Shown piece by piece: positions 8,001 to 63,032 of a stretch of 64,000 nt of DNA. The position numbers and the translations under genes are program-made. Position 1 is the stretch's first letter; each line of letters starts with the position of its first letter. Origin of the DNA: Candidatus Nomurabacteria bacterium (GTDB lineage Bacteria > Patescibacteriota > Patescibacteriia > Magasanikbacterales > UBA922); the NCBI GenBank assembly GCA_020632445.1, contig JACKFN010000005.1, positions 30,786 through 94,785 of the forward strand, given 5' to 3'. The notes below the pieces were generated by a model. It saw nothing but the letters and a program-made list of their open reading frames with translations. It did not search any database and had not been told where the DNA came from.

Positions 8001-8062
8001 CCCACCTTCAAAATACCAAAAAACACCAACGCTATGGTGTTTTTTGGTATTTTGAAGGTGGG
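8001..8062. repeat. Perfect 28-bp inverted repeat with a 6-nt loop (CCCACCTTCAAAATACCAAAAAACACCA-acgcta-TGGTGTTTTTTGGTATTTTGAAGGTGGG)
   Basis: Read directly; arms are exact reverse complements. The right arm ends in TTGAAGGTGGG, an 11-mer that recurs at 37869 and 40800. Confidence 0.9.
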
Positions 8063-8064
8063 AA

Positions 8065-8538: not shown

Positions 8539-8589
8539 TTTGAGGAGTTTGTCAATGTGCTTCTTGAGGAGTTTTTGTCTCTGCGAGTG

Positions 8590-8635
8590 GAAACAAAAAA
8601 TCAGTGTATCTGCACTGATTTTTTTTGTTTTGGGT
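8590..8635. terminator. Bidirectional intrinsic terminator hairpin
   Basis: AAACAAAAAATCAGTG-tatc-tgCACTGATTTTTTTTGTTTT: 12-bp stem flanked by A and T runs on either side. Confidence 0.55.
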
Positions 8636-8642
8636 ATGCGAG

Positions 8643-9440
8643 CTACGACCACCCCTCAAGTTTTTCTGCAAAGTGAAAAAGACCGTCAAACATGGCACAC
8701 ATAAATGCTACAATTCCACTGTGTCTAAGCGTGATAACCATAGAAGTTTCTGGTAGGAGAAAGGAAATGCGGTCGCCGTAAATCAAAGCGAGTTCGTTGA
8801 TTGGGATAATAGATTCGGGGAGTGTGCGCAAATCCCAAATGCGTTTTTCAAAGGTGCGGTTCACCTCAGGTGACTGCAAAAATTTTTGTTTTGGTACGGC
8901 AAGAGATTCTTTTGTGAAGATTCCATGTGTGATAATCTCCCTTTTTACTACACGGTCAAAGAAGATGTTCCATTGGTTTGGTGTGAGAAGATCGAGCTCG
9001 TCAATAAGCCCCTTTTTGCCCTCGAGGACACGAAACATAGAGCCCTTTGGAAGCAGAGAGATTTTTTCGTATACTGAAAAGTACCCTTTTTTTGACTCAA
9101 CTACCTCAAATTCGGGTCGTTCACTGGTGACCTTTTGAAGTGACTCAAGTTCCGGTACAAGCAACTTAAGGTCGAGGGTCAGTTTGGTGAGATCTGTTGC
9201 CAGCTGTGCGGGCGGCTTAGCGTTAAAGTGCTGAATTTTTCCTCGCGGAGACTGAAAGAGGAGACCCTTTTCCTGCAGGTTTTTGATGTGAAAATAAGCT
9301 GCAGTTCTGGTCATTTTTACTTCTTTTGCAATTTCAGAGGTGCTGGGATTTTCCAGTGAGAGCACCGCCAGGTAGATGTCGACTTCCTGTTTGGAAAGAG
9401 AAAAGTGTTTGAGGACAGAGTAGATATTGGAGATTTCCAT
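8643..9440 (-). CDS. TrmB-like winged-helix transcriptional regulator (paralogue 1 of 7)
   Basis: Start at the internal ATG (MEISNIYSVLKHFSLSKQEVDIYLAVLSLENPSTSEIAKEVKMTRTAAYFHIKNLQEKGLL), an N-terminal TrmB-type HTH, plus a roughly 150-aa C-terminal domain ending in the family-shared hydrophobic-x-x-LW motif (FHFAEKLEGW). Confidence 0.6.
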   Translation of the reverse strand: MEISNIYSVLKHFSLSKQEVDIYLAVLSLENPSTSEIAKEVKMTRTAAYFHIKNLQEKGLLFQSPRGKIQHFNAKPPAQLATDLTKLTLDLKLLVPELESLQKVTSERPEFEVVESKKGYFSVYEKISLLPKGSMFRVLEGKKGLIDELDLLTPNQWNIFFDRVVKREIITHGIFTKESLAVPKQKFLQSPEVNRTFEKRIWDLRTLPESIIPINELALIYGDRISFLLPETSMVITLRHSGIVAFMCAMFDGLFHFAEKLEGWS

Positions 9441-9568
9441 AGGTTTCTTTTTTACCGAGTGTATCACAACAAGTGGTTTTGTCAAATATTTTTTTCACCA
9501 CAAAGTGTTGACATAATACATAAAAAAGGGTAAAGTTACTTGAATTGTTAAATATAATTTTCAATTGC

Positions 9569-10696: not shown

Positions 10697-11443
10697 TTAC
10701 GTTGGTACATCATCAGGCTCAGGTAGCAAATCCCAAAGCATTTCAAACGTTGCGCGAAAAACATCTACCATTGCCGGGATCTGGATGACCACAGCGAGCG
10801 AGGAAAGCTTTGGACTGACCACCATCACTTTATCATCATAGATATCCATGGTTGATTTAAAGGTATAGCCTTCGGGCGTGTATTTCCATGTTCGACAAAA
10901 GCTTGGATCCGTTGGGTTATTGTATTTTGAATCAATACTTAAGATGAGTTTGGTGTGTACTTTCTTTTGCCCGCGGCGTTTTCGAAATTCTACAAACCAA
11001 TCCGTATCAAGTTGTTCCCAATAAACGGCACTCCCTATATCGTAGTATGTTTTGCCTGCGTATTCATCAAGAATGTTTTCATAAAATCTTTTGAGCTCTG
11101 CGAGCGTCTCTATGTATTGCAGCCCAAAGGGGGTTTGCGAGGATCCTTGAAGAGACTGGAGCATTGGCACGATGCTCTCAAAAGCTTCAATCTTTTTTTC
11201 TTGTTGACGTATGACATTTGCGGGTTTTTGCGGATAAAAGAGTTTTACATTGTTTTTGAAATACGTGGTAGCAAATCCTTTTTGAGAAAGTGACTTGAGG
11301 ATTGGGTAGACGGTCGTGCGTTTTACGCCCATGCTGCTGGCCACTTTGCTGGCAGGGGCCCCACCCAAAGAAAGTAGAGTAAGGTAGGCATCTACCTCCC
11401 CGTCAGAAAGACCAAGTTTTTTGATAATGTCGTGGTTTTTCAT
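10697..11443 (-). CDS. TrmB-like winged-helix transcriptional regulator (paralogue 2)
   Basis: MKNHDIIKKLGLSDGEVDAYLTLLSLGGAPASKVASSMGVKRTTVYPILKSLSQKGF...; C-terminus FRATFEMLWDLL. Confidence 0.6.
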   Translation of the reverse strand: MKNHDIIKKLGLSDGEVDAYLTLLSLGGAPASKVASSMGVKRTTVYPILKSLSQKGFATTYFKNNVKLFYPQKPANVIRQQEKKIEAFESIVPMLQSLQGSSQTPFGLQYIETLAELKRFYENILDEYAGKTYYDIGSAVYWEQLDTDWFVEFRKRRGQKKVHTKLILSIDSKYNNPTDPSFCRTWKYTPEGYTFKSTMDIYDDKVMVVSPKLSSLAVVIQIPAMVDVFRATFEMLWDLLPEPDDVPT

Positions 11444-16543: not shown

Positions 16544-17302
16544 TTACTCACTCGAGGATTTTTTATTTTTGGATGGAGTACTGGATTTCCAAAGAAACGC
16601 AAAGATGTGTTTGAAGGCGTTTGCGATAGTGTTGTTTTTTATGAGGATGCCCGAAGGGTTTTTCGGGTCAAATGCAAAGATCGCGAGTTTATCATCGTAT
16701 ACATTTATTTCAATCCCCAAATCTTTAAAGAGATCAATAAATTTCATTTCGCGCAGCAAAGCACTTGCCTGAGAAATATCTTTTTTTCCAATGGCACTCT
16801 CTGGAAGAAGACTTTTGACTTTGACACCTTTTTCGATTCTCTTTTTGAAGTAATTGTTTCGCAAGAATTCATCCCCCACTACCTTGTAAGCCTGCTCATA
16901 GTCGGTTAGGGCGTAAATAGTTTTTTCTTTGTTATCTCTCCAGGTGTCGTCATAAAGATTCATAACCCCATCGAGTCCTTCGTAGTATTTTATTTCAGAT
17001 AGCAGTGTTTGAGGGCGTCTTGGCTGCGTGTGGGTCCATTCAATAAATGCCTTCGTTTCTTGTATGGTTTGGTCTTGTTTGCGCTTGGCCCAGGAGGAGA
17101 GTTCTTGGTGTGAGAGTGCTTTGTACACGGTGTGTCCCTCTATTTGTATTTTGCTCACGAGGCCTCTTGAAAGTAATTTTTCAAGTATTGGGTACAGTGA
17201 TGTGCGATTGATGAGAATGATTTTTGAAAGGTCGGAAACAGAAGAGGGACCATTTTGTAGTAGGCCGGAAAGAGTTTTTTTTTCTTTTTCGCTGAGAAGC
17301 AT
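16544..17302 (-). CDS. TrmB-like winged-helix transcriptional regulator (paralogue 3, solo)
   Basis: MLLSEKEKKTLSGLLQNGPSSVSDLSKIILINRTSLYPILEKLLSRGLV...; C-terminal FKHIFAFLWK. Confidence 0.55.
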   Translation of the reverse strand: MLLSEKEKKTLSGLLQNGPSSVSDLSKIILINRTSLYPILEKLLSRGLVSKIQIEGHTVYKALSHQELSSWAKRKQDQTIQETKAFIEWTHTQPRRPQTLLSEIKYYEGLDGVMNLYDDTWRDNKEKTIYALTDYEQAYKVVGDEFLRNNYFKKRIEKGVKVKSLLPESAIGKKDISQASALLREMKFIDLFKDLGIEINVYDDKLAIFAFDPKNPSGILIKNNTIANAFKHIFAFLWKSSTPSKNKKSSSE

Positions 17303-30583: not shown

Positions 30584-31006
30584 TTGCGTCCGAGGGAAAA
30601 CATCATCCGCCGGCAATCATGGGGAGAGGTTGCTGCAAACCTCAGGAGGAGCCGAGTGGATATCCGTGAATGGTTGGTAGTGTTGATGGCTGCGGCCACA
30701 ACGTTTTTGGTCGCCGGTGGAGATTACTACTGGCGTCGAGATCGAAAGGTCATGGCCGCGCTATACAGCGCATTGGGAGTGTTCGCGTCAGCTGTCGTTG
30801 GGATCGGGCAAGCTCGAAACCAGGGACTGCAGATCCTGCCAATGTACATCCTCTTTTTCGCACTGGACATGTTTGTCTTCCTTGCGTTCTGGCGTCGCAT
30901 TGCGCACCGTCATTTCGCATGGATGGAAGCGTGCCGGTGGGGACACCGTAATCACACCCCTCTCGCCTCGGGCGCCCATCTCTCTGGTACCGGACCTGCT
31001 GCCTAA
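30584..31006 (+). CDS. Hypothetical 3-TM membrane protein encoded in a GC-rich island
   Basis: 140-aa ORF with three clear hydrophobic helices (LVVLMAAATTFLVAGG, VMAALYSALGVFASAVVGIG, ILPMYILFFALDMFVFLAFW); about 60% GC against an AT-rich background. Downstream TCCTCCCCACCCTTACTCC overlaps the yidD 3' end. Confidence 0.35.
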   Translation: MRPRENIIRRQSWGEVAANLRRSRVDIREWLVVLMAAATTFLVAGGDYYWRRDRKVMAALYSALGVFASAVVGIGQARNQGLQILPMYILFFALDMFVFLAFWRRIAHRHFAWMEACRWGHRNHTPLASGAHLSGTGPAA

Positions 31007-33536: not shown

Positions 33537-33563
33537 CTGTTTGTATAGACTAGTGTATACAAA
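33537..33563. repeat. P1 palindrome copy 2 (CTGTTTGTATAGACTAGTGTATACAAA)
   Basis: Read directly. Confidence 0.9.
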
Positions 33564-33603
33564 TGGGGTATTATGGGGGAGTCATAGCAATGGAGGGCAA
33601 GAT

Positions 33604-33954
33604 ATGGCAGTCGTCCCAACATACTGGGTGTTGGAGGATGAGGTTCTCACGTTTATTTACTGCCTCATACCAGGGCATGATATGGGGTACGGGAGTCTGG
33701 GGCATCGCCTGGTCGTGGTGAAGGTCTTATACGAGCTCTACCTCGATCAGAGTGATCAGGTCGAGAACGTTAGGTTTTCGAGCACAGATGGTCTGCTAGC
33801 GGCTTTGTCGTGGCTTGTGGCAGACGGACACGTTGAGAAATTTGAGATTGAGCATGTCTGCGACTGGGTGTTCGGTTGTTTCTATGAAACTAACTTGGAG
33901 GACTCACCTCAGTCTCGAGGACCAGCGGTCCCTCGTACTTTTTTCCTTTTCTAA
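33604..33954 (+). CDS. Hypothetical protein (116 aa), moderately GC-rich
   Basis: GGAGGG Shine-Dalgarno 6 nt upstream of the ATG at 33604 (MAVVPTYWVLEDEV...). The TAA stop is followed by CTTTCTCCCACCTCCCTAATC. The track ORF starts inside the P1 repeat. Confidence 0.35.
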   Translation: MAVVPTYWVLEDEVLTFIYCLIPGHDMGYGSLGHRLVVVKVLYELYLDQSDQVENVRFSSTDGLLAALSWLVADGHVEKFEIEHVCDWVFGCFYETNLEDSPQSRGPAVPRTFFLF

Positions 33955-33969
33955 CTTTCTCCCACCTCC

Positions 33970-37899: not shown

Positions 37900-38520
37900 T
37901 CACGCGTACTTAGGTCGATCGCGCAATCTCCGATTCGGTCGGTCATAGTACCACAAAACGACATTGGCGGAAACGAGCAAGCTGTAGGTGGGGTTGACCC
38001 ACATGAACACCGGGTCCTCCCGCCAGAAGAAGTAGAAGGTCCACACGAGTGCACTGATCAGATAGATGATCTGCAGTCGGACATCGACCCTTCCCCTGCC
38101 CTTGAGCCACATCTCGCGAGTTTGTAAATAGGCCGCAAAGATGATCAACGCCATGATGGCTGAAAAGGTCTCACGCTTGTGCACGGTGCTGTACATGAAT
38201 GTCGTTGCCAGCGTACTTAGAGCGACTATTATCCAGTCACGTCTGAGCCACTTCTTGTATTTCCAGAGGCCGACAAGTACGGGGAGTTGGCTGACTACGA
38301 GCACTCCACCGTTGTACAGGATCATCTCCTCCCAGCCACGCCAAACGCCGTAGTCGATCTGCGCTATCGATGCAGCGAGGTAGTAGACAAACCAGGATAC
38401 GGATACCGCTTCAGCACTTTGAGACCTAAAGATCTTGTACGCCTGGAGCGCTGACCCTACGGCTTGCGCGATGGTGAAGATGACGATCCCGACACCGACG
38501 AGCATGAGTTGGTTGAACAT
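37900..38520 (-). CDS. Membrane protein with tandem LAB_N-like (lipid-A-disaccharide-synthase N-terminal-like) repeats, encoded in a GC-rich island
   Basis: 206 aa, about 6 TM; the second repeat holds LQTREMWLKGRGRVDV...FYFFWREDPVFMWVNP, resembling the LAB_N consensus (R..QW..SEK...S..P..FW...RxDPVF). About 58% GC. Stop TAA followed 17 nt later by AACCCCACCTTCAACC. Confidence 0.4.
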   Translation of the reverse strand: MFNQLMLVGVGIVIFTIAQAVGSALQAYKIFRSQSAEAVSVSWFVYYLAASIAQIDYGVWRGWEEMILYNGGVLVVSQLPVLVGLWKYKKWLRRDWIIVALSTLATTFMYSTVHKRETFSAIMALIIFAAYLQTREMWLKGRGRVDVRLQIIYLISALVWTFYFFWREDPVFMWVNPTYSLLVSANVVLWYYDRPNRRLRDRPKYA

Positions 38521-39722: not shown

Positions 39723-39987
39723 AGAGTTATGAGAGTAAATAAAATGGAGCCCAGAAGGGCTCCGTGCAAGTCACTCTCAAAATCTAAAGGCGAATAAAGA
39801 TTGTGAGAAGTGTCTTGCAAGCAACACTCCTGTTTCGCCTTTAAAAGTTGTTATCTTTGACATGGTATTATATGCGAAAAAGAGACAAATGTCAATAATG
39901 TCATAACAATATAGATACAAATTTATTTAAAGATAAACAAAAAAATGCTGTTGACAATACATCAACAACATGCTATGGTGTACATAT

Positions 39988-40749
39988 ATGATACAAGAAA
40001 CGCTCAAGCATCTGGGTCTTACTGAAAAGGAAATTCAGATATACCTTGCAATTTTGCAGCATGGTCAGATTGGTGCCACGCAGATTGCCAAGTACACTCA
40101 GATAAATCGAACCACGGTATATAGTGTGGCAAAAGAGCTTCTTCGAAAGAACTTGATTGCTGAGGACCTCGCGTCACCTGTTGCAAAATTTGTGGCACTC
40201 CACCCATCTACGATTGAGTCGCAGATAAAACGAGAGGAAGAAAAATTGCATGACAAAAAACGTTGGGCCATGAAGGCTGTTCGTGAGCTTAACACCTTCA
40301 CTCAGAGCACAAAGTATTCTGTGCCACGCATTGTGTTTGTGGAAGAGGAAGATGTAGAAGCGCATTTGTATAAGCAGGCAGATGTTTGGAACAAAAGTAT
40401 TCTCGACAACAATACAATGTATTGGGGATTCCAGGATCGGCATTTTGTCAAGCACTATGAGCATTGGATAGACGACTATTGGGCAAAGTTTCCCTCATCT
40501 AAACAAGTTTCTTTGAGATTGGTGAGCGACGAGGAAGCCGAAAGACTCAAAGGGAAAAAGTACCCAAGGCGTCAGATTAAATTTTGGGAAAAGGCAAAAG
40601 ACTTTACGGCAACAACCTGGGTCATGGGAGATTACGTAACGATGATCGTTACGGAGAAGCGACCTCATTATTTGGTGGAAATATATGATGTGACACTTGC
40701 ACATAATCTGCGTGAAGTGTTCAAGGGATTGTGGGAAGAGATTGATTGA
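39988..40749 (+). CDS. TrmB-like winged-helix transcriptional regulator (paralogue 4)
   Basis: Start at the internal ATG (MIQETLKHLGLTEKEIQIYLAILQHGQIGATQIAKYTQINRTTVYSVAKELLRKNLI); C-terminal FKGLWEEID; promoter-like TTGACA-17-TATGGT upstream. Confidence 0.6.
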   Translation: MIQETLKHLGLTEKEIQIYLAILQHGQIGATQIAKYTQINRTTVYSVAKELLRKNLIAEDLASPVAKFVALHPSTIESQIKREEEKLHDKKRWAMKAVRELNTFTQSTKYSVPRIVFVEEEDVEAHLYKQADVWNKSILDNNTMYWGFQDRHFVKHYEHWIDDYWAKFPSSKQVSLRLVSDEEAERLKGKKYPRRQIKFWEKAKDFTATTWVMGDYVTMIVTEKRPHYLVEIYDVTLAHNLREVFKGLWEEID

Positions 40750-40767
40750 AATTTCCAAGAAAAAAAC

Positions 40768-40792
40768 TGCCATAGCGGCAGTTTTCTTGTGT
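40768..40792 (+). terminator. Intrinsic terminator after the TrmB-like gene, followed by TTGAAGGTGGGGG
   Basis: AAAAAAACTGCCatagcGGCAGTTTTCTTG. Confidence 0.55.
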
Positions 40793-40812
40793 TTGAAGAT
40801 TGAAGGTGGGGG

Positions 40813-41043
40813 TTAGGATTCCTCGTGTGGTGCTACCAGTGCCAGCAGAGACCTGCGAGCGAGACGACGTGCGGCACTCTTGCAGCCGGGCTGCGAGCAG
40901 CAGCGGATGGTCGCGCTGTAGCCGGGATGCTCCGGATCGTGGGCGTTGATGACCAGGGTCGAGGGATTACCACAGCCTCGTCGGCCAAGGCAGTCATCCT
41001 TGATGACCCATGAGGGTTTTTCGTCCACATGCGTTTCAATCAT
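40813..41043 (-). CDS. Small Cys-rich protein (76 aa), GC-rich, apparently co-transcribed with the upstream HAD hydrolase gene
   Basis: ATG at 41043 preceded by a strong SD (caAGGAGAccccgATG) lying inside the HAD gene's last codons. MIETHVDEKPSWVIKDDCLGRRGCGNPSTLVINAHDPEHPGYSATIRCCSQPGCKSAARRLARR... with five Cys. Stop TAA embedded in GGTTAGG and followed by CCCCCACCTTCAATC. Confidence 0.45.
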   Translation of the reverse strand: MIETHVDEKPSWVIKDDCLGRRGCGNPSTLVINAHDPEHPGYSATIRCCSQPGCKSAARRLARRSLLALVAPHEES

Positions 41044-41093
41044 CGGGGTCTCCTTGCTATGTGTTTGTATCCTACCTTGCGTAGGCGTGGTTG

Positions 41094-41693
41094 TCAATCT
41101 TCAAGAAGTCTCGAGAGGTCGCTTTGAAAGTCTGTAAGATTTTGAAAATGGTGTGCTTGCATGCCGATGCTCGCTGCTGCAGCGGCAGCTTTTTCATCGT
41201 CATCGGTCATAAAAATTTCTTCGGGTTTGAGTTGCAATGTCTTTGTAATATTTTTGTATACTTTCGGATCAGGTTTGCGAAGTTTTGTTTCTGCGCTACA
41301 AAAAATTTCATCAAAGAGCATATTCAGCTTGTATTTTTCTTTGAGAAAGTTCCATCGGTGGATTTCGTTGTTGGTACAAAGTACGCAGAGAAGGTTTCTT
41401 TCTTTGAGCATTTCAATAAGTTTGAGTACTTGGTCGTCAATGCTTCCATCATCAAACCAATAGTGTAAAAGCTCATCAAGCGTACCTGGAAAGTTCCACT
41501 CAGGAAGTCTTCTCGTGAGCACTTCTTTCATGTCTTTGATACCTGCTTGGCAGTCGGCAAATTCCATTTGAAAAAATTCGAGGACTTTTTCTTCGTTGAC
41601 GTTTGGGTAGTCTTTGAGTAATCGAGTGGTCATCAAAGGTGTGGTTTCATGATAGAGGACTCCGTCGAAGTCAAAGGATACGGCTTTAATCAT
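41094..41693 (-). CDS. HAD-superfamily hydrolase
   Basis: Start at the internal ATG (MIKAVSFDFDGVLYHE...), the DxDG motif I, with LCVLCTNN (motif II) and a C-terminal Asp-rich motif; about 200 aa. Confidence 0.75.
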   Translation of the reverse strand: MIKAVSFDFDGVLYHETTPLMTTRLLKDYPNVNEEKVLEFFQMEFADCQAGIKDMKEVLTRRLPEWNFPGTLDELLHYWFDDGSIDDQVLKLIEMLKERNLLCVLCTNNEIHRWNFLKEKYKLNMLFDEIFCSAETKLRKPDPKVYKNITKTLQLKPEEIFMTDDDEKAAAAAASIGMQAHHFQNLTDFQSDLSRLLED

Positions 41694-41796
41694 AAGGCTT
41701 ACTTTGTGAAATTTGATACGGGGAGTACTTTCAGTGACCGTTTCAACGGATGTCGTGGTCATTGAAAGTACTCCCTGTATCAAATGAGGTAATGCA

Positions 41797-42180
41797 TTAT
41801 ATGTCAAAGTAACATTGTCCGTCTGGGCTTTCGTGTCTGGTAATCATTTCTTGATACTCTGGCTTATAGAGCTGGGTAATAGTAAATTTTCCGGCGGTCA
41901 TATGCGTATCTTTGTTTTTCCCGGTAATGGTTTGTTCGAGAATAAGGACATGACCCCAATAAAGCCACTTGCCATCAATGTTGTGTACGAGGAAACAGCG
42001 TGTGGGTGCGTGATGATAGACGCGCGCACTTGGCTTGGAATGAAACGAAAAAACTTTACCTTCTACTTCGGAAATGTTTATGGGATTTTGCGTATGTTTT
42101 TTTCGATTCAGAATACTTGCTGGAAATCCTTGCTCTGTAGTAATCTGAAGCGTATCGTTAAGTTCAATAAAACTTCCCAT
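41797..42180 (-). CDS. Hypothetical protein (127 aa)
   Basis: ORF with plausible codon usage immediately downstream of the MazG-like gene; no family recognised. Confidence 0.4.
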   Translation of the reverse strand: MGSFIELNDTLQITTEQGFPASILNRKKHTQNPINISEVEGKVFSFHSKPSARVYHHAPTRCFLVHNIDGKWLYWGHVLILEQTITGKNKDTHMTAGKFTITQLYKPEYQEMITRHESPDGQCYFDI

Positions 42181-42187
42181 AGAGCTG

Positions 42188-42523
42188 TTATTTTAATTTC
42201 TCATTATTGGCGTGACGTTCGGCGTCGCGCTTGGTTTTCTTTTCCAGATTTTTTGCAAGTGCCTCGCTGAGATCAACGCCGGTTTGGTTGGCAAGACAAA
42301 TCAGCACAAAGAGCACATCTGCCATTTCATCGGAGAGGTCGTATTGCTCGTCACTTTTTTTGAAGCTTTGGTCACCGTAGGTGCGTGTAATGATTCGTGA
42401 CATCTCTCCTACTTCTTCCATCAGCTGACCGAGGTTGGTTAGCTCAGAAAAGTATCGCACACCAATCGTATTGATCCAATCATCAACGTCTTTTTGGGCT
42501 TGTTTGAGGGTAAGGTCTTTCAT
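42188..42523 (-). CDS. MazG-like nucleotide pyrophosphohydrolase
   Basis: 111 aa; EEVGEMSRIITRTYGDQSFKKSDEQYDLSDEMADVLFVLICLANQTGVDLSEA matches the all-alpha NTP-PPase EExxE/D...ELGD-like metal-binding helix pattern. Confidence 0.65.
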   Translation of the reverse strand: MKDLTLKQAQKDVDDWINTIGVRYFSELTNLGQLMEEVGEMSRIITRTYGDQSFKKSDEQYDLSDEMADVLFVLICLANQTGVDLSEALAKNLEKKTKRDAERHANNEKLK

Positions 42524-42639
42524 AATGTAGTTTCTTTTAGCTTAACATATATCTTGACAGGGAGGAAATCGCATGATACGATGCCGTGTCATAGCAGCTT
42601 ACCCGGTGGTCGGGACAGCGCTGTGCATGCTTGGGAGCA

Positions 42640-43042
42640 AAAAATGAGGCGTTGTGAGCAGAAATTCAGTGTACCCACAACGGTAGGCGTCCACGCCTAT
42701 CATCTGGTGGTCACTGCGCAGGTCGCTCGGGTGATTGGTGAGTGTGGACTGCGCACCTTGGTAGTGGCGAACTGTGCTAGGGGTGACCAGTTTGAGGCCA
42801 GGATTCTCGTTGGTGAGGTGGGATGGAGCCGCGTTGTAAGGGTTAGGGAAGCAAGTGTCCAAGACGAGGATCCAATCATAGAGATGCTTCACTTACACAC
42901 TCGGAATTTGGGTGTGGCTTCGTCTGAGGGGCGTGTCGTCCATGAGTTTCGGCTGTCTGAGTTGATCAGTGGCGGACTCGAGGTGATCAGAGATCGGCTC
43001 CAATGGAGGCAGCACAAGAGCAGATTGCTCAGCAGATGTTGA
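42640..43042 (+). CDS. Hypothetical protein (134 aa) in a GC-rich island, preceded by a 22-codon leader ORF (42573..42641) with ATGA stop/start overlap
   Basis: GGGAGGAA SD 6 nt before the ATG at 42573 (MIRCRVIAAYPVVGTALCMLGSKK); its TGA overlaps the ATG of MRRCEQKFSVPTTVGVHAYHLVV... Downstream ATCCCACCTCCATCGAC, then a strong terminator. Confidence 0.35.
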
Positions 43043-43116
43043 GTCCAAACGAGCATGATCATCACAACTGGCCACACACCGCAGTTTATCCCACCTCCAT
43101 CGACTCACCACCGTCG

Positions 43117-43160
43117 AAAAAAACAAACCGCTTTTATGTAAGAGCGGTTTGTTTTATTTT
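43117..43160. terminator. Strong bidirectional intrinsic terminator
   Basis: AAAAAAACAAACCGCTtttatgtaagAGCGGTTTGTTTTATTTT (12-bp stem). Confidence 0.6.
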
Positions 43161-46283: not shown

Positions 46284-47033
46284 TTAATCTATTTTCGGCA
46301 TAACACGGGTTGTCTGCCATAGCACACTAAAGAGATTTTTTTGTGTCTGAGAGTAATCGGTGGATTCTATAATAAGGGCAAACCCCTCACGCTTTGTACT
46401 GAGTACAACTACTTTGTTGTCATAAAGATATGTTGAGGTAGGAAAGATCATCTCAGCTGGTGCAAAGTGAACCGTGCGCAGCTCCTTGTCACTCGAGGCC
46501 CAGTCCTGGTCAATATCTTTGTCCTGGGAGCGTATGACATCAAGATGAATACCTAGGGATATTCGCTGCTGGATATGCTCATCCATAAAGGATTTTCCAA
46601 CGGTCTTGTAAAGATCCTCCATGGAAAGAATGGCACAAAGTTTTCTATTTTTGACGGTAAGTATATCGTTGAAAACAGATTGCATGCCATCTTGTCCCTC
46701 AAATATTCTTGTCCTAGGCTTGGTACCATTTGGGTTATAGAGTGCCATGAGATCTGGCAATGATTCATCAAGCTTTCTTTGCTTGCGACGAAGAAGGGAT
46801 TGAAGCATGTTCGGATTTTCTGCTGTATATATGCGAGTTCTGCCTTGCAAGACATAACTAACCACACCTATACTGCACAGTTGTTGAAGGATCTCATGTG
46901 TGGTGGTTCTGGGAAGCTGCGCATGATTGGCAACATCCTGTGCAGAGCCTGATCCAATCTCAAGAGTCGCAATAAAGACTTTTGCCTTTGATTTGTCGAT
47001 CCCAAATTCGCTCAATGCAGAGTAAATTGACAT
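46284..47033 (-). CDS. TrmB-like winged-helix transcriptional regulator (paralogue 5, solo)
   Basis: MSIYSALSEFGIDKSKAKVFIATLEIGSGSAQDVANHAQLPRTTTHEILQQLCSIGVV...; C-terminal LFSVLWQTT. Confidence 0.6.
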   Translation of the reverse strand: MSIYSALSEFGIDKSKAKVFIATLEIGSGSAQDVANHAQLPRTTTHEILQQLCSIGVVSYVLQGRTRIYTAENPNMLQSLLRRKQRKLDESLPDLMALYNPNGTKPRTRIFEGQDGMQSVFNDILTVKNRKLCAILSMEDLYKTVGKSFMDEHIQQRISLGIHLDVIRSQDKDIDQDWASSDKELRTVHFAPAEMIFPTSTYLYDNKVVVLSTKREGFALIIESTDYSQTQKNLFSVLWQTTRVMPKID

Positions 47034-47988: not shown

Positions 47989-48645
47989 TTAGGCAACCAC
48001 GCTGGAGCGGTGGTCAAGGGCCTCGGCGATCGCAGCAAGGGGCATGGTGAATTCTCGATCACCTTTTTGGAACATAACCTCGCCCCTGCGCAGCAGGTTG
48101 CGGACGGTGCTCTGCGTGATGTGCAGTACGCCGATGAGGTGACACATCTCGATGCCGTAACGTCGGATGACCAGGTAGGCCGCGAGTTGGCGGATGAGGG
48201 CGTATCGGCCTCTCGTGTGAGCGACGATGTCGCCGATATCACAATCGAAGACGATGCAGACCAGGTGGAGGATCTCACGAGCGCCAGCTTCTCCATGAAG
48301 GGACGAATCCCTTAACTGGATCCGAGGGGCCAGACTCCTAAAGGAAAGCCCGTGACGATGCATCATGGAGCGCACGCGGGACCGCAGTGTGGTGCTGGAC
48401 ACGCGTGTATCGAACTGTGCGGAAGTCAAGGACACGAGCTCACCGATGGTGTCGATCCCGTCACAAACCAGCCGACCTCTTCGCCAGATGCTGCAGAGTT
48501 CTTCGGCGTCGTCCATTGACAGACCAACGAGTTCTTCACACAGGAAGGTGTCTCCGGAAATACCCGACATGGCAGCTGCTCCGCAGATGATTGTGGTCAC
48601 TATCGGACAGAGTAAAGGAATTCTCGTCAAATGTAAAGCAGGCAT
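47989..48645 (-). CDS. GC-rich island protein with a C-terminal DnaA-domain-IV-like helix-turn-helix
   Basis: C-terminal RGRYALIRQLAAYLVIRRYGIEMCHLIGVLHITQSTVRNLLRRG aligns with the DnaA DNA-binding domain (compare this genome's own DnaA, [35 protein letters not shown]). The likely start is an internal ATG at 48570, which has a GGAGCAG SD. Stop TAA followed by CCCTACCGCGACGCCCCACCCGTCAAACC, then a terminator. Other frames in this about 64% GC stretch are also open. Confidence 0.4.
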   Translation of the reverse strand: MPALHLTRIPLLCPIVTTIICGAAAMSGISGDTFLCEELVGLSMDDAEELCSIWRRGRLVCDGIDTIGELVSLTSAQFDTRVSSTTLRSRVRSMMHRHGLSFRSLAPRIQLRDSSLHGEAGAREILHLVCIVFDCDIGDIVAHTRGRYALIRQLAAYLVIRRYGIEMCHLIGVLHITQSTVRNLLRRGEVMFQKGDREFTMPLAAIAEALDHRSSVVA

Positions 48646-54091: not shown

Positions 54092-57000
54092 ATGTTGCGC
54101 ACACCAAAGAAAACAATTCAGGAGGGTGTGTTATTGAGGTTTAAAAACGAGATCCTAACCGTCGTTATGGGAACCATTGTTGTGGTTACCCTTGTTTTGT
54201 TTGGTATTTTTGCCATGGCTGAAAATGTAGTGGGTGCGGCACCTCCAGCCATTATCACCTATCAAGGAAAACTGCTCAAAAGTGGTGCGGCCGTTACCAC
54301 GACACAACAAATGGGATTTATGGTCTATAGTGCGTCAACCGGTGGGTCGCTTTTGTATACAGCATCGGGGACACCAACAGTAACTTCGACGATTAACGTG
54401 CCCGTATCACAAGGAATTTTTTCTGTGAGCCTTGGTAATACCGGAACCAATAGTATCCCAGCAAGTATTTTTGCCACCAATACCGCACTTTATTTGCAGG
54501 TGTGGGTAAATGATGGTGGAACATACACCAAACTCACTCCTCGTAAGAGGTTGACGGCATCGCCATTTGCCATGAACAGTCAGTATCTTCTTGGGTATTC
54601 ACCTGCCGTTTCATCGACAAGTCAATATATACCGGTCTCAGATAGTAATGGAAACTTTGCCTTTCGTGGCGACCCACAGTCAACAGGAGTTGCCGGAGGA
54701 ACACTATATATCAATCCAGGGACAGCAGGCGCGAATGAAACACTGTTTGGAATAGCGCTCAATGGAAGTGAGCGTTTTCGTGTAGATGAAGATGGAGATA
54801 CGTGGATTGAAGGGGGATTGGTAGTAAGCACTACGCTCCAAGCTGCAACAACAACATTAGCAGAGCTTTCTGTTACAAACGGGATTACGCTAGGTGGCGT
54901 ACGAAGAACCACTTGGCCATCTGGTGGAGGTGGTGGTTCAAGCCTCTGGGCGAGCAGTACCGGAAGAGTTTATCCTGCAACCTTGACAGATGTTGTACTC
55001 GTTGGAAAAAATTCAACATCATCAGCGAGTACGGTTTTTGAAGTAAGTGGGTCTTCACTTTTTGAGGGAAATGTTTCTCTGAGTTCTGGTTCAACGCTCA
55101 CACTTGCGGGATCATTGACGCAAACTGGAATTTCAAGTTTTGCCACAACAACGTTTAACGGAGATCTTTCTGTGCTCAGTGACTTGAACGTTGGCTCAGG
55201 CAAACTCGTTTACGTTACAAGCACCGGATTTGTTGGGGTGAACACGTCAACACCAGGCGCGCAGTTTGCGGTTGACGGAAACGGATATTTCAAGGGAACA
55301 TATGATATAACTGCAGATTTGCGTATTCTCGATAATTTGTATGTTGGATCCCGATCAGAGGCAATTACTTCATCGACGTTTGCTCTTGATGGGGATGACG
55401 CATACATTCATGATTTGCTTGGTGTTGGTGATAGCATTTTTGTGGAAAATGCTTTGCACATTGGTACAAGTTCGCTGCATCTTACAGGAAATACTGGAGG
55501 TGCAGGTGGACTCATCCGTATGGATGGAGGGCCATTAGTTATTGACTCCGCCGGAGCGCTTAGCCTGAATACCAACAAAAATCAACAAATCTATACGGGA
55601 TCAGGAAACTTTGGTATCAACACAACCTCACCGGCGTATAATTTGAGTGTCGAGGGACAGGCCTATGTGAGTGCTACAGCCACTGCCAAGGATCTTGTGG
55701 TCAGTGATTCACTCACTCTTGGTGGTGTCAGACGGACGTCATGGCCTGGTGGAGTGGAAACCACTACAAATAACGATTTTTCTGGACTCAATACGTTCAG
55801 TGCAACGACAACATTTACTTCTACGACATTTTCTGGAAAGGCCACCATAAACAATTTGCTCAACGTGACAGGAAAAACATTCAACCCAAGACCTGCAGGT
55901 TCATATACCAACACCACGCTTTTTGATGATGTGGACAAGATTGTTGTAAAGAATAACATTGCGTATATTGGTTCTGCGACAGGTACCCTGTCACTTGTTG
56001 ATGTCAGTAATCCAAACAGCCCCGCACTCCTTGGTTCATATACGTCAACTACACTTGCGCCATTTGGTGGTGAGATGAATTTGCAGGTAGGTGGTCAGTA
56101 TGCCTACTTTGGTTCATCCAATGCATTCCATATCATTGATATATCAAAGCCAAAGTCTCCTACGTTTGTAGGTCAGATATTGAATTTTGGATTTCCTACT
56201 GGTTTGAGTGGTTCTACTGCACTTTCTGGAAGTGTTTTGTATGGTGCAAACGGCGTTGGTGGTGCAATGCCGGAATATATAGATATCACACGTGCGCATG
56301 AGCCAAGGAAGTATTCTCCAGCAGGAGCAAGCTCACTTGATCAGGGACGTGCCACTTTTGTATCGGGTCGATACGTGTATGTGCTTGGAAGCACGCCAAA
56401 TTTGGTTATCTTTGACTACAGTGATAAAACGCATCCTGTACAAGTTGGAATTGCCACATCGACAAGCTTTAGTAACATAAGTTTTACTGCGGAAAACGGT
56501 GATTTGTTTGTCGATGGTCGGTATGCTTATGTCACAGCACCTACATCGGGCTTTGGTGGTGGTGGTGATGCACTTACCATTGTGGATGTTGGTAATCCGG
56601 CTTCGCCAAGCGTTGTCGCTACATTACCTTCTACAACGAGCGCCTTGATGGATGATCCTACTTCAGTTGTTGCTGTCGGAGATTTGGTGTATATCACAAG
56701 TGAATCACAGAATTCCCTTGCCATTGTCGACGTTTCAACAAAAGCAAGTCCAACAGTGGTCGGGTCTATTACTGACTCTGGTGCTACGCTTTTACGTGGT
56801 GCCAAGTCGGTCGATGTTTCCGGAAATTATGCGTATGTGGTATCTCGGACCGACAAGTCGTTGCAGGTCATTGATATATCCGGGATCAAAGTCAATAATG
56901 CACAAATTGGTTCAGCACGTATAGAGCGAATTCAGGTATCCGGAAAATCATATTTTGATGAAGACATTGATATCGGTGGGGGACTCAGTGTTGGTGCTAA

Positions 57001-60000
57001 CGGGCTTCTGCTCAGAGGAGATTTAAATATTATTGGAAACGGTTCAATAAGTACTTCGACGATAAGTACGGGAACTATTCGTTTTGCGGGTGCGGCAAAT
57101 TTTAGAAGCGACATCACTTCGGGGAGTGCAGCATTTACCTTTAATCCTGGTGCAAATCTCGATACAGCCGTATTTAGGATACTGAATTCTTCGGGTTCGG
57201 AATTGTTTTACATGACCAAGGATGGATATTTGGGTATTGGAACCTCTACTCCATCCAAAAAATTAGAGGTGAGTGGAGATGCATACGTCAAGGACAACTT
57301 GTATGTCGGAAGGGGCACGGAGGCCATTACTTCATCGACATTTGCTCTTGATGGCGATGATGCATACATTCATGATCTTCTTGGTGTTGGTGATAGCATA
57401 TTTGTGGAAAATGCTTTGCATATTGGAACAAGTTCATTGCACCTTACCGGGGATACGGGTGCTACCACGGGTGGACTTATTCGTATGGATGGAGCTGGGC
57501 TTACGATTGATGCCGAGGGAACACTGAGTCTCAATACCCAAAGTGGGAATGGTATTAGCTTTGGTGGAAATGTCACCTCTGATTTGAGTGTTCGTGGTAA
57601 GGTGGGCTCTCCGGTAAACGTTGGAACCATTGATTTGTCATTTGGAAATACTGTAGAGGTTGTTGATGGCTATGCCTATGTTACTCTTATCGATGGTGGT
57701 TTCTCTATTATCGATGTTGGGAACCCGGCAACACCAACAACAACAGCAACCATTGATCCGGTTTCAAATTCTTATGACATCAGCGTATCGGGAAATTATG
57801 CATTTGTTTCGCATAACAATGGAGGATCTGACGGGATATCGGTTATTGACATTACAGATAAGTCCAATCCGTTTTCAGTAAAAAATTATCGGTTTTCTGC
57901 GCTGGCAGTAGAATCAGTTATTTCGGGAAATTATCTCTATGTAGCTGCCTCAACACAATTGAGTGTCATTGATATTTCAAATCCCCTTGAACCTGTTACG
58001 GTAGGTTCATGGTCTGGTGACTCTGTAGTTGGAATTGAAGTACAGGGAAGCTATGTGTATGTGAATGGTGGTACAGAAATTCATGTCATCGATGTATCTG
58101 AGCCTACAAGTCCCGTTCAGGTGGCTACATTCAACACGGCTCAGAGTATAAATGACATGATACTTGAAGACGGGTATATATATACAAGTGGTGGTAGTCC
58201 TGAAGGTGTTCGAATTTTTCGCGTCGGAGATAATGGAAATATACGACTGATTGGATCTCTGACATCAGGGCTTACCGATCTTCGAAAGATGGCAATATCA
58301 GGAGATTATCTTTATGCATCTGATTTTACTGATGGACTTGTCGTGATAGATATTAGCGATAAAACAGCACCGGTGGAAGTGGTTACCACGAATCCTGGAT
58401 CTTCTGGTGCACTTGATGTCGAGGCCGTTGGAAATTATGTGTACCTCGCTACCAAGGCAGATGGATTCCGTATTTTAGATGTCACAGCCATCCGTTCGGC
58501 CAATGCTCACATCGGTTCGCTTCGCACTGGTAGGCTGTATGTAGACAATCAGGCATTTTTTAGCCAGCCTGTGCATATCAATAGCGGACTGCATGTTGGC
58601 AATGATGGGCTGATGCTTTCCGGTGATTTTGCGATGTTTTCTAATTCTACATCGACGTCAGCCACTACAACCATGCGTTTTGGAGATACGGTGCGTTTCT
58701 TATCGACGGTGACGAGCTCTGATGATTATGCCTTTATTTTTGACACTCAGAATCGCTTGACCATCAATACTACGACATACATCATGTCCATTCGTAACAA
58801 TGGAGATCCGCTTTTCTCCATAGATACTCGTGGGGATGTCTACGCATCGGGTACATATCACGGAGAGGCCATTAATGTTAGCACCTCAGGACAGCCTGGA
58901 GACCTTGCCGAAAAAGTAGATATTGCCATAAATGAATCTGTTGAGCCTGGTGATGTTATCGTTGTTGATCATGAGGCGAATGATCGTTATAGAAAGAGTG
59001 TACAGCCATACCAAACAGGGGTAGCAGGTGTTATTGCTACCAATCCGACCATTGTCATCGGAAGCGGAAAGACAGAGAATCAAGCTAAGCTTACTATGGT
59101 TGGTCGTGTACCCGTAAAAGTAAGTGACGAAAATGGTGCGATCCAACGTGGAGACCTACTTGTTACCGGTTCTAAACCTGGGTATGCAATGAGATTTGAT
59201 CCATATCATGATACTGGCGCTCAAGCTGTCGGCGTCGTTGGTGTCGCACTTGAACCACTTCCTGTTAACGAAGGAAAAGTCATGGCGCTTATTCGTGGTG
59301 GATACATTAATAATCGGACCAAGACGCTTAGCGAAATTCAGCAAGATCTCTTATCATTGGCACAGTATGAAGGAATTCCGATTGGAACGAGTGTTCAGGA
59401 TTTAAGTATTAACATCAATTCAGAAGGGGGAATAGACAATCAGTTAGTAAATCAGGATTTGGGTGGTAGCTACATTATCAATGTAGCCGGATTGCTCGGA
59501 AAAGATGGAGCTTGGGAGGTGGATGATAATGGAAGATTTATTACGAAGGTTGCTACTTCGGCGGGTACTAAGGAGCTCTATGCTATTCAATCAGGGAATA
59601 CAGAATATGTGTTTTCGGGTACAGGACAGCTAGAGTCAGGAAGTGCGCGCGTAGATTTTGGTGAGGTTACTCAGGAGCTTATTGATGGTAATAAGCCTAT
59701 GAAGGTAAGTGTTACACTCACGTCCGAGGCAAACGGAATTTTTGTGGAGTCAAAGAATGCCACTGGATTTACGGTCAAGGAATTACAAAATGGAAGCAGT
59801 AGTGCAACCTTTGATTGGGTTGTAATAGCCCAAAGAAAGGTAATAGATAGCGATAATACTCATTCTGATGAGGGTGTTCAGGAGGCGCAGCAAGAGCGAC
59901 TAGAAGAGCAACCAGAAGAGCAACCAGAAGAGCAACAACCAGAGGTAGTGGAGGAAGAAGTTGGAGAAAGTGAAGAAAATGAAATCGTGGAGGATCCAAA

Positions 60001-61100: not shown

Positions 61101-62201
61101 ATGAAGAAGCTTACCTATCGGATAGTACAGTTTTGGTCTTTCTTCCAGGAGCACGTGTACGGTCGTAGCGAGGAGGTCTCGCTCCAGATCAATCCGAGTG
61201 TGCTTTCTCGGGAGATGAGAGGCTACCACGCACAGGCGCTCTGGCACAGCCACATCTCACTGCTGTTCGTATACGTCTCGACGTTACTCGTGTGGTGTGC
61301 TTGGGAAGCAATCAATTCCCAAACAGTTCTTAACGGTGTTGGAACAGGTATATGGGATTGGGAGTCGGTGCTCAGTGGCGTGATTCTCTACCTGATGCTG
61401 GTTTTTCTCTTCGCAGTTCCATTGTGTGGATCGAGCTGGCTTCGACGTGATAACACGGTGCGATTCACGCGCGGATTCATGACTGATGAAGTCAAGGATC
61501 TACTTGAGAGGTATAGGTGGTTTTATTTCGACGACAAAGTCACCTATCGCATGGTCTTCACGAACCGCAATCCCATCTTCTTCCTGCGAATCCTCGAACG
61601 GTTTCCCTGTCAGTGCGACTGGAGCAAGCCCGTACGCAAGGACCTTCTTACATGGCTGATCATCTGTGTCCTTGAGCCATTGCTTTTCCAGCAGATTTAC
61701 CTGCGGGTCATCTGGCCTTACTTGATCAATCCATTTCAGTTGGCCTTTCTGTCGTACGACGAAGCAGCCAAAACAGCAGACCTCAAAGAGGGCGAACGTG
61801 TGCTCGTCCTCGGTGCGGGTGCTGTTCCCCACCACATTCGCTGGAAGCGTCGGCTGAGTGCTCGTGGTTGGATCGTGGCACTCGACGATAACCCCTACGT
61901 GCTTCGAGACTCACGAAGGATTGAAGCGCTTATCGAGTGGCTACGCGGACTGCTGCGTCTCCAACGTCGAGAAGTCACTAAGTACGTGCGGGCTGACAAC
62001 CTTACCCTACCATTCCCTGATGCAAGCTTCGACGCGGTCATTGCGATTCGTTGCTATGTCATAAACGTCGATGAAGCGAAACGTGTACTCAAGCCGGGTG
62101 GTCGACTTGTCGTTATCTGTTGTGGCGAGGTACGAGGCAAGGACCTGCACCATCAAGCCGGACTCCAGGTAACCTATGATGGGTTTGTCCTCACCATTTG
62201 A
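61101..62201 (+). CDS. Membrane-anchored class I SAM-dependent methyltransferase, in a GC-rich island adjacent to tRNA-Ala
   Basis: N-terminal about 200 aa with several TM helices; C-terminal Rossmann MTase motifs VLVLGAGAVP (motif I), DAVIAIRC, LKPGGRLVV. About 55-60% GC. Stop TGA followed by TCCACCAACCCACCATCACAACC. Confidence 0.55.
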   Translation: MKKLTYRIVQFWSFFQEHVYGRSEEVSLQINPSVLSREMRGYHAQALWHSHISLLFVYVSTLLVWCAWEAINSQTVLNGVGTGIWDWESVLSGVILYLMLVFLFAVPLCGSSWLRRDNTVRFTRGFMTDEVKDLLERYRWFYFDDKVTYRMVFTNRNPIFFLRILERFPCQCDWSKPVRKDLLTWLIICVLEPLLFQQIYLRVIWPYLINPFQLAFLSYDEAAKTADLKEGERVLVLGAGAVPHHIRWKRRLSARGWIVALDDNPYVLRDSRRIEALIEWLRGLLRLQRREVTKYVRADNLTLPFPDASFDAVIAIRCYVINVDEAKRVLKPGGRLVVICCGEVRGKDLHHQAGLQVTYDGFVLTI

Positions 62202-62459: not shown

Positions 62460-63032
62460 TCAGGCAGGGTCAACTGACCGATTGGGTGAGAGAAGGATGA
62501 TGGCGAGGGTGGTGAACTCCGTTATGGAGAAGGAGATTGGCTGCCCAGCGTTGGCAAGGTCCCACGTGGGGACAGCAAGGAGTTGGATGAGGCAGCTCAG
62601 GCTAAACATTGACCACCCCCACTTACTTTCATACTCGGGGCGCTGGTAGGCAGAGAACATTGTGGGTATTCCACCAGCAACCATGGCTACCAGGAACATC
62701 ATCAGCGCAATGTCCCCTTTATCCAGTACGAGCCAGATGCCTGCGCCGATTGAGGCGACAGCCATGCTGGCGATATCGATCCAAGACCATCCTGGCCTGC
62801 CGTGCTTGATCGACAGCAACAGAACGACCGAAGCGCCGGTGACGACTCCGGCCATCATCCAGTTCATACTGCCATTGTCGATCATAGACCCGATGACCAG
62901 GAAGTCCAGGATGACCCATACGATCCAACTCGCTCGGACGGGGCGCGCGCCTTCCTTGAGAATAGCGCGAATGTAGGGGGCAAAGCCCAGAAGAAACACG
63001 ATGCCCGAAGCCATGGAGAGGTATTCTTTCAC
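62460..63032 (-). CDS. Hypothetical polytopic membrane protein (GC-rich island)
   Basis: 190 aa, 5-6 hydrophobic helices; followed on the minus strand by terminator AAAAAAAGCCACTcgcAGTGGCTTTTTTT. Confidence 0.4.
   Translation of the reverse strand: MKEYLSMASGIVFLLGFAPYIRAILKEGARPVRASWIVWVILDFLVIGSMIDNGSMNWMMAGVVTGASVVLLLSIKHGRPGWSWIDIASMAVASIGAGIWLVLDKGDIALMMFLVAMVAGGIPTMFSAYQRPEYESKWGWSMFSLSCLIQLLAVPTWDLANAGQPISFSITEFTTLAIILLSPNRSVDPA

Follow-up and report, generated by a model that had tools for sequence, protein, structure and literature searches.

Is the small, cysteine-rich open reading frame (ORF) that follows a hydrolase gene in Candidatus Nomurabacteria DNA a genuine gene, and if so, does it depend on the hydrolase gene for its expression or is it a unit of its own that arrived from elsewhere? 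The question is raised by positions 40,768 to 41,693 of the 64,000-nt stretch analysed here (hereafter the window, meaning the whole stretch at its full length). An earlier inspection of the letters (the sequence-only reading) had described an ORF of 76 codons, about 60% GC and five Cys, opening at an ATG at 41043 and lying downstream of an AT-rich HAD hydrolase gene at 41094..41693, and had regarded it as a foreign small gene spliced onto the end of a host operon and translationally coupled to it. Both the ORF (GC 0.602) and the hydrolase gene (GC 0.403, in a window with a mean of 0.441) were found where they had been placed, and the features around them are as follows.

41094..41693, minus strand: HAD-IA hydrolase gene of 199 aa, the upstream neighbour (Pfam Hydrolase and HAD_2)
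41069..41097, minus strand: predicted sigma-70-type promoter, TTGACA-17-TAGGAT (promoter scan)
41049..41055, minus strand: Shine-Dalgarno sequence AAGGAGA, with a 5-nt spacer to the ATG at 41043 (read from the sequence)
40813..41043, minus strand: coding sequence of the 76-aa five-Cys protein, MIETHVDEKPSWVIKDDCLGRRGCGNPSTLVINAHDPEHPGYSATIRCCSQPGCKSAARRLARRSLLALVAPHEES (ORF listing; homologues P0009 and P0011)
40800..40812, minus strand: C-rich, G-poor tract CCCCCACCTTCAA, resembling an anti-Shine-Dalgarno sequence, directly after the stop of the 76-aa gene
40760..40785, both strands: bidirectional intrinsic terminator, AAAACTGCC-GCTAT-GGCAGTTTT plus T-run (terminator scan)
39970..40749, plus strand: TrmB-family regulator gene, the convergent neighbour (Pfam TrmB)

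Position, signals and composition of the small gene

The 76-aa ORF runs from its ATG (41043-41041) to its TAA (40815-40813), and the Cys residues of its product are at positions 18, 24, 48, 49 and 54. The HAD gene, whose product has a 100%-identical counterpart among NCBI proteins, from 'Candidatus Nomurabacteria bacterium', extends from an ATG at 41693 to a TGA at 41096-41094, and a gap of 50 nt follows before the ATG of the small ORF. The AAGGAGA motif had been placed within the last codons of the HAD gene; it is indeed present, at 41055-41049, but it starts 39 nt 3′ of the HAD stop and is thus outside that coding sequence. Given this gap and the location of the Shine-Dalgarno sequence, the proposed translational coupling to HAD has to be abandoned. 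The gap also carries the predicted promoter, consisting of a −35 hexamer TTGACA (41097-41092), a 17-nt spacer and TAGGAT (41074-41069), with the HAD stop codon itself falling inside the −35 hexamer. Matches to TTGACA-N16-18-TAnnnT occur 19 times in the window versus 2.6 ± 1.6 times in shuffled sequences (a sevenfold enrichment), mostly 5′ of genes, and because of this enrichment and placement the predicted element is taken as a real promoter.

At the other end, reading the plus strand across the TAA of the 76-aa gene gives GGTTAGG, and the stop is followed by CCCACCTTCAA (40810-40800), the core 11-mer of the tract, and by a hairpin with a T-run, so that this part of the sequence-only reading, which had spoken of a stop embedded in GGTTAGG and followed by a junction motif and a terminator, is borne out in full. 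The terminator (40785-40760) has a folding energy of −15.6 kcal/mol (z = −4.2) and is common to the 76-aa gene and the convergent TrmB-family gene; the terminator scan returned none between HAD and the 76-aa gene.

The base composition of the gene is atypical (GC1/2/3 = 0.62/0.53/0.65), and its GC3 of 0.65 compares with 0.395 ± 0.05 in ordinary genes of the window, i.e. about 4.5 binomial standard deviations higher. It had been stated that GC content jumps exactly at the junction of the two genes, which is not the case: the maximum-likelihood GC-rich segment is 40805-40991 (0.658 inside, 0.415 outside), which puts the break about 50 nt inside the ORF, and the GC content is 0.44 in the first 52 nt of the ORF and 0.54 in the spacer that precedes it. 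The picture of a foreign gene spliced onto an operon end therefore survives in its compositional half, but not in the half that would make the gene a mere appendage, since the 50-nt spacer contains a promoter of its own.

Evidence for coding and a rare protein family

A word-indexed protein search recovered the query alone, on two Logan contigs whose sequence matches that of the window at 100% identity, and the locus is assembled in the runs SRR12358675 and SRR12358676; the protein is missing from the NCBI protein sources and is seen in Logan gene calls only. Run in full against 1.84 billion representatives, HMMER added one homologue, P0009 (68 aa), and a profile search that followed added a second, P0011 (69 aa). 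The E-values were 2e-4 library-wide for HMMER, 6e-34 and 4e-7 for the profile search and 6e-13 for pairwise BLASTP. Both proteins are 37-44% identical and retain all five Cys. The three-protein alignment (A2) has 19 invariant columns, among them W12, D17, C18, C24, N26, S28-T29-L30, R47-C48-C49 and C54-K55, from which the family pattern W..K.DC-x5-8-C.N.STL...RCC-x4-CK can be written; the window ORF, P0009 and P0011 share the features by which membership was judged, namely a length of 68-76 aa, the invariant residues and a C-terminal helix. Four further HMMER matches (P0005, P0006, P0008 and P0010) are internally repetitive, with scores summed over 3-8 repeats, and were rejected as spurious; P0007 (2219 aa, six matched stretches) has the same summed-score pattern and was judged spurious on that pattern, without its sequence being read. 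Running the family profile against metagenome and viral sets added no members, tblastn against phages and plasmids returned nothing meaningful, and two further GC-rich window proteins, used as queries in viral scans, returned nothing.

When the three genes are aligned by codon, positions 1 and 2 show a nucleotide identity of 0.43-0.67 and position 3 one of 0.22-0.25 (random), and different codons are used at 14 of the 19 invariant residues. This coding-type pattern of substitution implies selection on the protein in the 76-aa frame. At the RNA level, the ORF folds no better than its shuffles (z = −0.02), and Rfam 15 gives no credible match in 40600-41200 (best E = 0.21, far under the cut-off), three tRNAs being the only gathering-score matches in the whole window. 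The comparisons thus indicate that the 76-aa ORF is protein-coding and a genuine gene, and that it belongs to a new and rare five-Cys family of which three members are known. Homology and structure prediction had been suggested as checks, and both were informative: the first yielded the two homologues just described, and the second a three-stranded sheet with a helix, predicted with moderate confidence (see below).

The chromosomal surroundings of the three members are unrelated to one another, and HAD accompanies neither homologue. One follows pilC/T2SS-F (locus L012) and has its own TTGACA-17-TATAAT promoter, an AAGGAGG and its own terminator; the other lies near folD, DUF2283 and DUF3800 (locus L013) and has no obvious Shine-Dalgarno sequence, promoter or terminator. 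The GC3 of the homologues is 0.58 and 0.24, and their flanks have an overall GC of 0.35 and 0.33. Taken with the 0.65 of the window gene, these GC3 values fit a mobile accessory gene that would be at different stages of amelioration in different genomes.

The predicted product

AlphaFold2 run on the three-sequence alignment gave a model of the window protein with a pLDDT of 75 and a pTM of 0.58, in which three strands (residues 3-10, 28-36 and 39-49) are followed by a helix (54-70), i.e. a beta-beta-beta-alpha arrangement. The same topology was obtained in an independent model of P0009 (over both models, pLDDT 75-77 and pTM 0.58-0.59). These values should be read with the very shallow alignment in mind (three members), and the Cys-bearing loop has a pLDDT of about 61. 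Within the model, two Cys are in the long loop (18 and 24), two at the end of strand 3 (48 and 49) and one at the helix N-cap (54), a placement that would suit a structural metal site.

Foldseek searches with two models against PDB and BFVD gave nothing below E = 0.05, the top matches being generic beta-beta-beta-alpha pieces (dsRBD/uS5-like domains and the N-terminus of RNase H), and a profile search of the PDB gave 0 matches. Nothing in Pfam, NCBIfam, PHROGs or PADLOC exceeded the cut-offs for the family; sub-threshold matches to BAMBI (E = 0.0026), the conotoxin precursor Toxin_8 (E = 0.16) and phrog_28452 (E = 0.005) are regarded as coincidences of motif. All three proteins are hydrophilic, with a GRAVY of −0.46 to −0.75, a maximum 15-residue Kyte-Doolittle score of at most 1.1 and a pI of 6.5-8.4, and no signal peptide, membrane segment or hydrophobic segment is seen in any of them. 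The five invariant Cys and the lack of a signal peptide make it plausible that the product binds metal, and judging by its sequence the protein is probably a cytoplasmic mini-protein that is putatively metal-binding.

A variable interval between HAD and comM

A related genome, whose HAD protein (P0003) is 70% identical, can be aligned collinearly with the window between about 49396 and 27721 (loci L007 and L008), so that the surroundings of the small gene can be compared directly. The HAD gene is kept in the relative with a terminator directly 3′ of it. More specifically, the order in the relative is HAD, a bidirectional terminator, two unrelated small genes (73 and 128 aa) and comM. The HAD-comM interval measures 5.5 kb in the window versus 0.9 kb in L007, with unrelated ORFans in each; the window version holds the 76-aa gene, the TrmB regulator (which is missing from the matching L007 interval), two solute-binding proteins, a GC-rich 206-aa membrane protein and an HTH protein. 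The interval is a variable islet. It had been proposed to check whether HAD genes of relatives lack the downstream ORF, and here the 76-aa ORF is indeed absent from the site 3′ of the 70%-identical HAD, which places it in a variable, probably horizontally acquired, gene pool. A second window-specific insertion of 1.45 kb, containing MazG, a 127-aa ORF and a GC-rich stretch, lies between HD_4 and HAD and is likewise missing from the relative.

A domain scan of neighbouring ORFs, which was not exhaustive, revealed no integrase or transposase, and neither direct repeats nor a copy of the 3′ motif, as an att-site duplication would leave, were seen at the 5′ boundary. Scanning genome contigs with the HAD protein gave only HADs of 27-30% identity from unrelated phyla.

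A C-rich tract after the stop codon

The tract that follows the 76-aa gene recurs in the window. Exact CCCACCTTCAA is present four times versus 0.023 expected, each time just 3′ of the stop of a GC-rich ORF (7739-7963, 8065-8652, 37900-38520 and 40813-41043), and looser forms (CCCACCTCC, CCCCACCC and CCACCAACCCACC) are found after the remaining GC-rich genes. If CCACC within 45 nt after the stop is counted, it is present in seven of the nine genes with a GC3 of at least 0.55 versus one of the 43 others (Fisher p = 2e-6), and of the two GC3-rich genes that lack it, one is a dnaA entry in the wrong frame. In L007, the tract follows all four higher-GC lineage-specific genes (GC3 0.43-0.85) versus none of 11. 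It is always C-rich on the coding strand and resembles the anti-Shine-Dalgarno core CACCTCC, and at 40800-40812 it is predicted to be unpaired in the minimum-free-energy fold. The motif is not retained at the 3′ ends of the L012 and L013 homologues.

One GC-elevated gene with the 3′ motif (33541-33954) has its counterpart in the relative at the corresponding locus (L007 8150-8491). The two proteins have 36% identity, and TAACTTTCTCCCACCT after this orthologous pair is identical at 16 of 16 nt. Since this gene is common to both genomes, elevated GC in the genome studied here does not always point to recent arrival. No paralogy was detected among the GC-rich membrane proteins of the window. A 167-nt repeat pair within the gene for a 2084-aa protein, considered as a candidate DGR, has mismatches at all bases and was dismissed.

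Such recurrence invites a broader proposal, which we rate as rather unlikely: that Nomurabacteria genomes contain an undescribed class of GC-rich modules, each self-contained and consisting of a single gene, that the 76-aa gene is one of them, and that the tract works as a signal instead of being a passive relic. A member of this class may consist of a perfect TTGACA-17-TAnnnT promoter, a GC-rich coding sequence and the tract (CCCACCTTCAA, CCCACCTCC or CCCACCC), usually before a terminator. The tract could then be (i) a junction left by a cassette-mobilisation mechanism, or (ii) a post-transcriptional element, such as a 3′-UTR seed pairing with Shine-Dalgarno sequences, by which accessory genes are marked or controlled.

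Weighing the explanations

The explanation that we favour, with a probability of about 0.7, is that the 76-aa gene is a self-contained accessory gene, probably acquired horizontally, which has its own predicted promoter and encodes a cytoplasmic, probably metal-binding mini-protein. Specifically, the promoter predicted over the HAD stop would drive the gene, and the unit would comprise, in order, promoter, ribosome binding site, 76-codon coding sequence, unpaired C-rich tract and the bidirectional terminator held in common with the TrmB gene. Part of its transcription may be read-through from HAD, with translation probably starting independently. The gene stands at the edge of the variable islet that separates two conserved genes, HAD and comM, its gain by horizontal transfer being the most likely origin, rather than its having been built into the HAD operon. 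In the product, a C-terminal helix that is basic and amphipathic would pack against the predicted three-stranded sheet; of the five invariant Cys, four (the two in the loop at 18 and 24, one at the end of strand 3 and one at the helix N-cap) would hold a structural metal, probably Zn2+, and the helix would bind a macromolecular partner.

The most direct competitor is a promoterless foreign cassette that was spliced onto the HAD operon at its end and depends on coupling to HAD for its translation. The shared orientation and the lack of an intervening terminator in the scan make read-through co-transcription possible, and the composition of the gene is atypical, as such a cassette would have it; however, with 50 nt from stop to start, a Shine-Dalgarno sequence well outside the HAD coding sequence, a strong promoter match of a sevenfold enriched pattern in the gap, a homologue at L012 that stands alone and no association of either homologue with HAD, we give this account a low probability. 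That the ORF arose by chance in GC-rich non-coding or degraded foreign DNA is hardly credible. GC-rich DNA has few stops, antisense frames are open here as well (overlapping ORFs of 49-68 aa are found on both strands of 40800-41137), and the protein is confined to Logan gene calls and has no family-database match, but the two homologues, from unrelated genomes of different GC, with coding-type substitutions in exactly this frame, largely refute it, and the conserved Cys and Trp, the canonical Shine-Dalgarno sequence and the ATG speak against it too.

Two further accounts concern what the locus produces. The sequence-only reading had allowed for a precursor peptide, and a RiPP or bacteriocin precursor, or a secreted disulfide-rich mini-protein with a CC-x4-C box like that of three-finger or activin-receptor domains, might be suggested by the small size and Cys content of the product, by the match of P0011 to the BAMBI N-terminal domain (18.4 bits at a cut-off of 23) and by that of the window protein to an alpha-conotoxin precursor, both of them sub-threshold. 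We consider such a product very improbable, since no maturase, protease or exporter is found in the three contexts, signal peptides and hydrophobic segments are lacking in the family, conservation extends across the whole predicted folded domain and does not follow a leader-plus-core design, and five Cys compare with 8-10 in three-finger domains. Alternatively, the locus might be mainly an RNA locus, in which the C-rich tract and the terminator form a 3′-UTR-derived regulatory RNA that pairs with Shine-Dalgarno regions, the ORF being secondary. Unpaired C-rich motifs that target Shine-Dalgarno sequences are known in the staphylococcal Rsa sRNAs, and the tract is unpaired, lies just 5′ of a stable terminator hairpin, follows GC-rich genes in both the window and the relative and is fully conserved after an orthologous gene pair whose proteins share 36% identity. 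Against this, the ORF is under protein-level selection and the motif is not kept at the 3′ ends of its homologues, and as the main account of the locus an RNA seems improbable to us, although a regulatory RNA could coexist with an accessory gene.

Significance

Considered by itself, the locus contributes one small unannotated gene and a rare five-Cys family, with three members among about 15 billion predicted proteins. This family, which has no curated family entry, solved structure or phage relative, is useful for the annotation of CPR genomes and unsurprising, and in other respects the 76-aa gene is an ordinary example of an orphan gene, probably one gained by horizontal transfer. More intriguing is the wider pattern of GC-rich accessory genes tagged by a 3′ motif resembling an anti-Shine-Dalgarno sequence; if the motif is functional, it would offer a way in, at the sequence level, to the acquisition, marking or regulation of foreign genes in ultra-small, streamlined CPR genomes.

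Comparison with known systems

The idea of a cassette, raised by the sequence-only reading, is best judged against integrons. Like an integron cassette, the 76-aa gene is a short single-ORF unit of foreign composition with a 3′ hairpin and a stop codon in a GTTAGG-like sequence. Unlike one, it has its own predicted promoter, and the GC-rich genes of the window are single and scattered among housekeeping genes, with no array. An integron attC site is an imperfect palindrome of 57-141 bp with a core site at each end, whereas the hairpin here is an ordinary terminator of 9-13 bp with a T-run. As candidate attC core sites, GTTAGGA does not conform to GTTRRRY (R′) at the final Y, and TCCTAAC does not conform to RYYYAAC (R′′) at the first R; an intI integrase domain was not found among the ORFs scanned, a set that was not exhaustive. 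In the integron sense, therefore, the cassette idea fails, but a looser form of it, GC-rich single-gene modules with a common 3′ motif, is retained.

With regard to the product, zinc-binding micro-proteins of the zinc-ribbon or treble-clef kind, such as the archaeal CPxCG-type zinc fingers, are the closest parallel: they too are cytoplasmic, hydrophilic proteins of 60-80 aa with at least four invariant Cys, some in a loop and the others at the N-terminus of a helix. The five-Cys family differs from zinc ribbons and treble clefs in having no CxxC knuckles (the spacings are C-x5/7/8-C and CC-x4-C) and no match in sequence or fold. The Cys box of three-finger, Ly6-uPAR and activin-receptor domains (CC-x4-5-CN; BAMBI, PF06211) also resembles it, in that CC-x4-C ends a beta-hairpin after two spaced Cys; however, P0011 is the only member to score against PF06211, below the cut-off, and five Cys, the absence of a signal peptide, a C-terminal helix and a bacterial cytoplasmic setting set the family apart. 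RiPP precursors of the SCIFF/ranthipeptide type differ in their surroundings, the neighbours here being HAD, TrmB and solute-binding proteins in the window, T2SS-F/PilC at the second locus and folD, DUF2283 and DUF3800 at the third.

The C-rich tract recalls the seeds of the Rsa family, which are likewise unpaired, C-rich, complementary to Shine-Dalgarno sequences and located immediately 5′ of an intrinsic terminator. The setting differs: the Rsa RNAs are sRNAs, whereas the tract described here lies in the predicted mRNA 3′ UTRs of GC-rich accessory genes.

The nearest relatives of the locus as a whole are the orphan genes in islets of Patescibacteria (CPR), a group in which individually transferred genes and islands have been reported to be common (PMC12455944). 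As in the cases described there, a single gene of atypical GC content and unknown function lies between syntenic genes, is absent from a relative and has no mobility genes among the neighbours scanned (PMC12455944). What distinguishes the 76-aa gene from these islet orphans is that it comes with a complete, native-type predicted promoter, a terminator and a recurrent 3′ motif.

C-rich tracts downstream of GC3-rich genes

Within 45 nt past the stop codon, a CCACC tract follows seven of the nine window genes with a GC3 of at least 0.55, compared with only 1 of 43 others (Fisher test, p = 2e-6), and in the relative whose locus (L007) is collinear with part of the window it follows 4/4 higher-GC genes and 0/11 others. 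The tracts are C-rich, G-poor and anti-SD-like, with four exact copies of CCCACCTTCAA among those of the GC3-rich genes. The genes that carry them are mostly lineage-specific, and most are also associated with a perfect TTGACA -35 element and a 17-nt spacer.

Genes with a downstream C-rich tract
7739-7963, +, GC3-rich gene
8065-8652, -, GC3-rich gene
30584-31006, +, GC3-rich gene
37900-38520, -, GC3-rich gene
40813-41043, -, GC3-rich gene (76-aa gene)
47989-48645, -, GC3-rich gene
61101-62201, +, GC3-rich gene
62460-63032, -, GC3-rich gene
L007 930-1109, 5744-5965, 6105-6491 and 8150-8491, higher-GC genes of the relative

TAACTTTCTCCCACCT is identical at 16/16 nt between the window (33952-33969) and L007 (8135-8152), and takes in the 15-nt spacer that separates comM from a convergent gene; this gene evolves fast, with a protein identity of only 36% between the two. 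Conservation is far lower in the coding DNA that flanks it, which suggests that selection acts on the motif itself.

Annotation of the GC-rich genes

In the protein collection, the adjacent HAD hydrolase comes from NCBI/nr, but the sole entries for the 76-aa product are Logan gene calls; the GenBank record thus appears to lack an annotation for the small gene. Two convergent ORFs at 7676-8282, both GC-rich and Cys-rich, lie beside dnaA (6128 to about 7500): one encodes a 74-aa protein that has CxxC-x10-CxxC and a basic N-terminus, the other a 195-aa protein with several CxxC pairs. Both use one perfect 29-bp palindromic terminator (8000-8063) with the motif on each of its two arms. Gene callers merge dnaA with antisense sequence from this region and so predict a product of 632-654 aa.

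The insertion upstream of the HAD gene

Directly upstream of the HAD start codon, an inverted repeat of 29 bp (41711-41785; 93% complementary, 17-nt loop) lies at the edge of a 1.45-kb insertion between HAD and HD_4, two genes that adjoin each other without it in the relative.

Content of the insertion
41797-42180, 127-aa ORF
42188-42523, MazG
42550-43160, GC-rich stretch (GC 0.55)
42554-42582, +, TTGACA-17-TACGAT ahead of the GC-rich stretch

The GC-rich stretch ends in CCCACCTCC and a terminator near 43120-43160. No convincing ORF was found in it and it has no match in Rfam; a pseudogene is one possible reading, an uncharacterised RNA another.

Regulators, operators and other repeated stretches

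The 24-nt palindrome TTTGTATACACTAGTGTATACAAA has five intergenic copies in the window (33406, 33537, 45102, 45865 and 46236) and a related copy upstream of a 113-aa gene in the relative (L007, about 8540), and resembles an operator site to which a dimeric regulator would bind. The 64 kb also hold five TrmB-family paralogues of ~250 aa each, three of which adjoin or stand near GC-rich genes.

TrmB-family regulators
8643-9485
10697-11443
16544-17302
39970-40749
46284-47033

Intergenic 33095-33352 matches L007 8723-8977 at 76-92% in every reading frame (tblastx), and since conservation extends to all frames this suggests a putative non-coding RNA or regulatory region; Rfam gave no credible match. 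Inside the 2084-aa gene, a 167-nt direct repeat (55331-55497 and 57293-57459; 84% identity) is not a DGR template/variable pair, because mismatches hit all four bases, and is instead an internal domain repeat.
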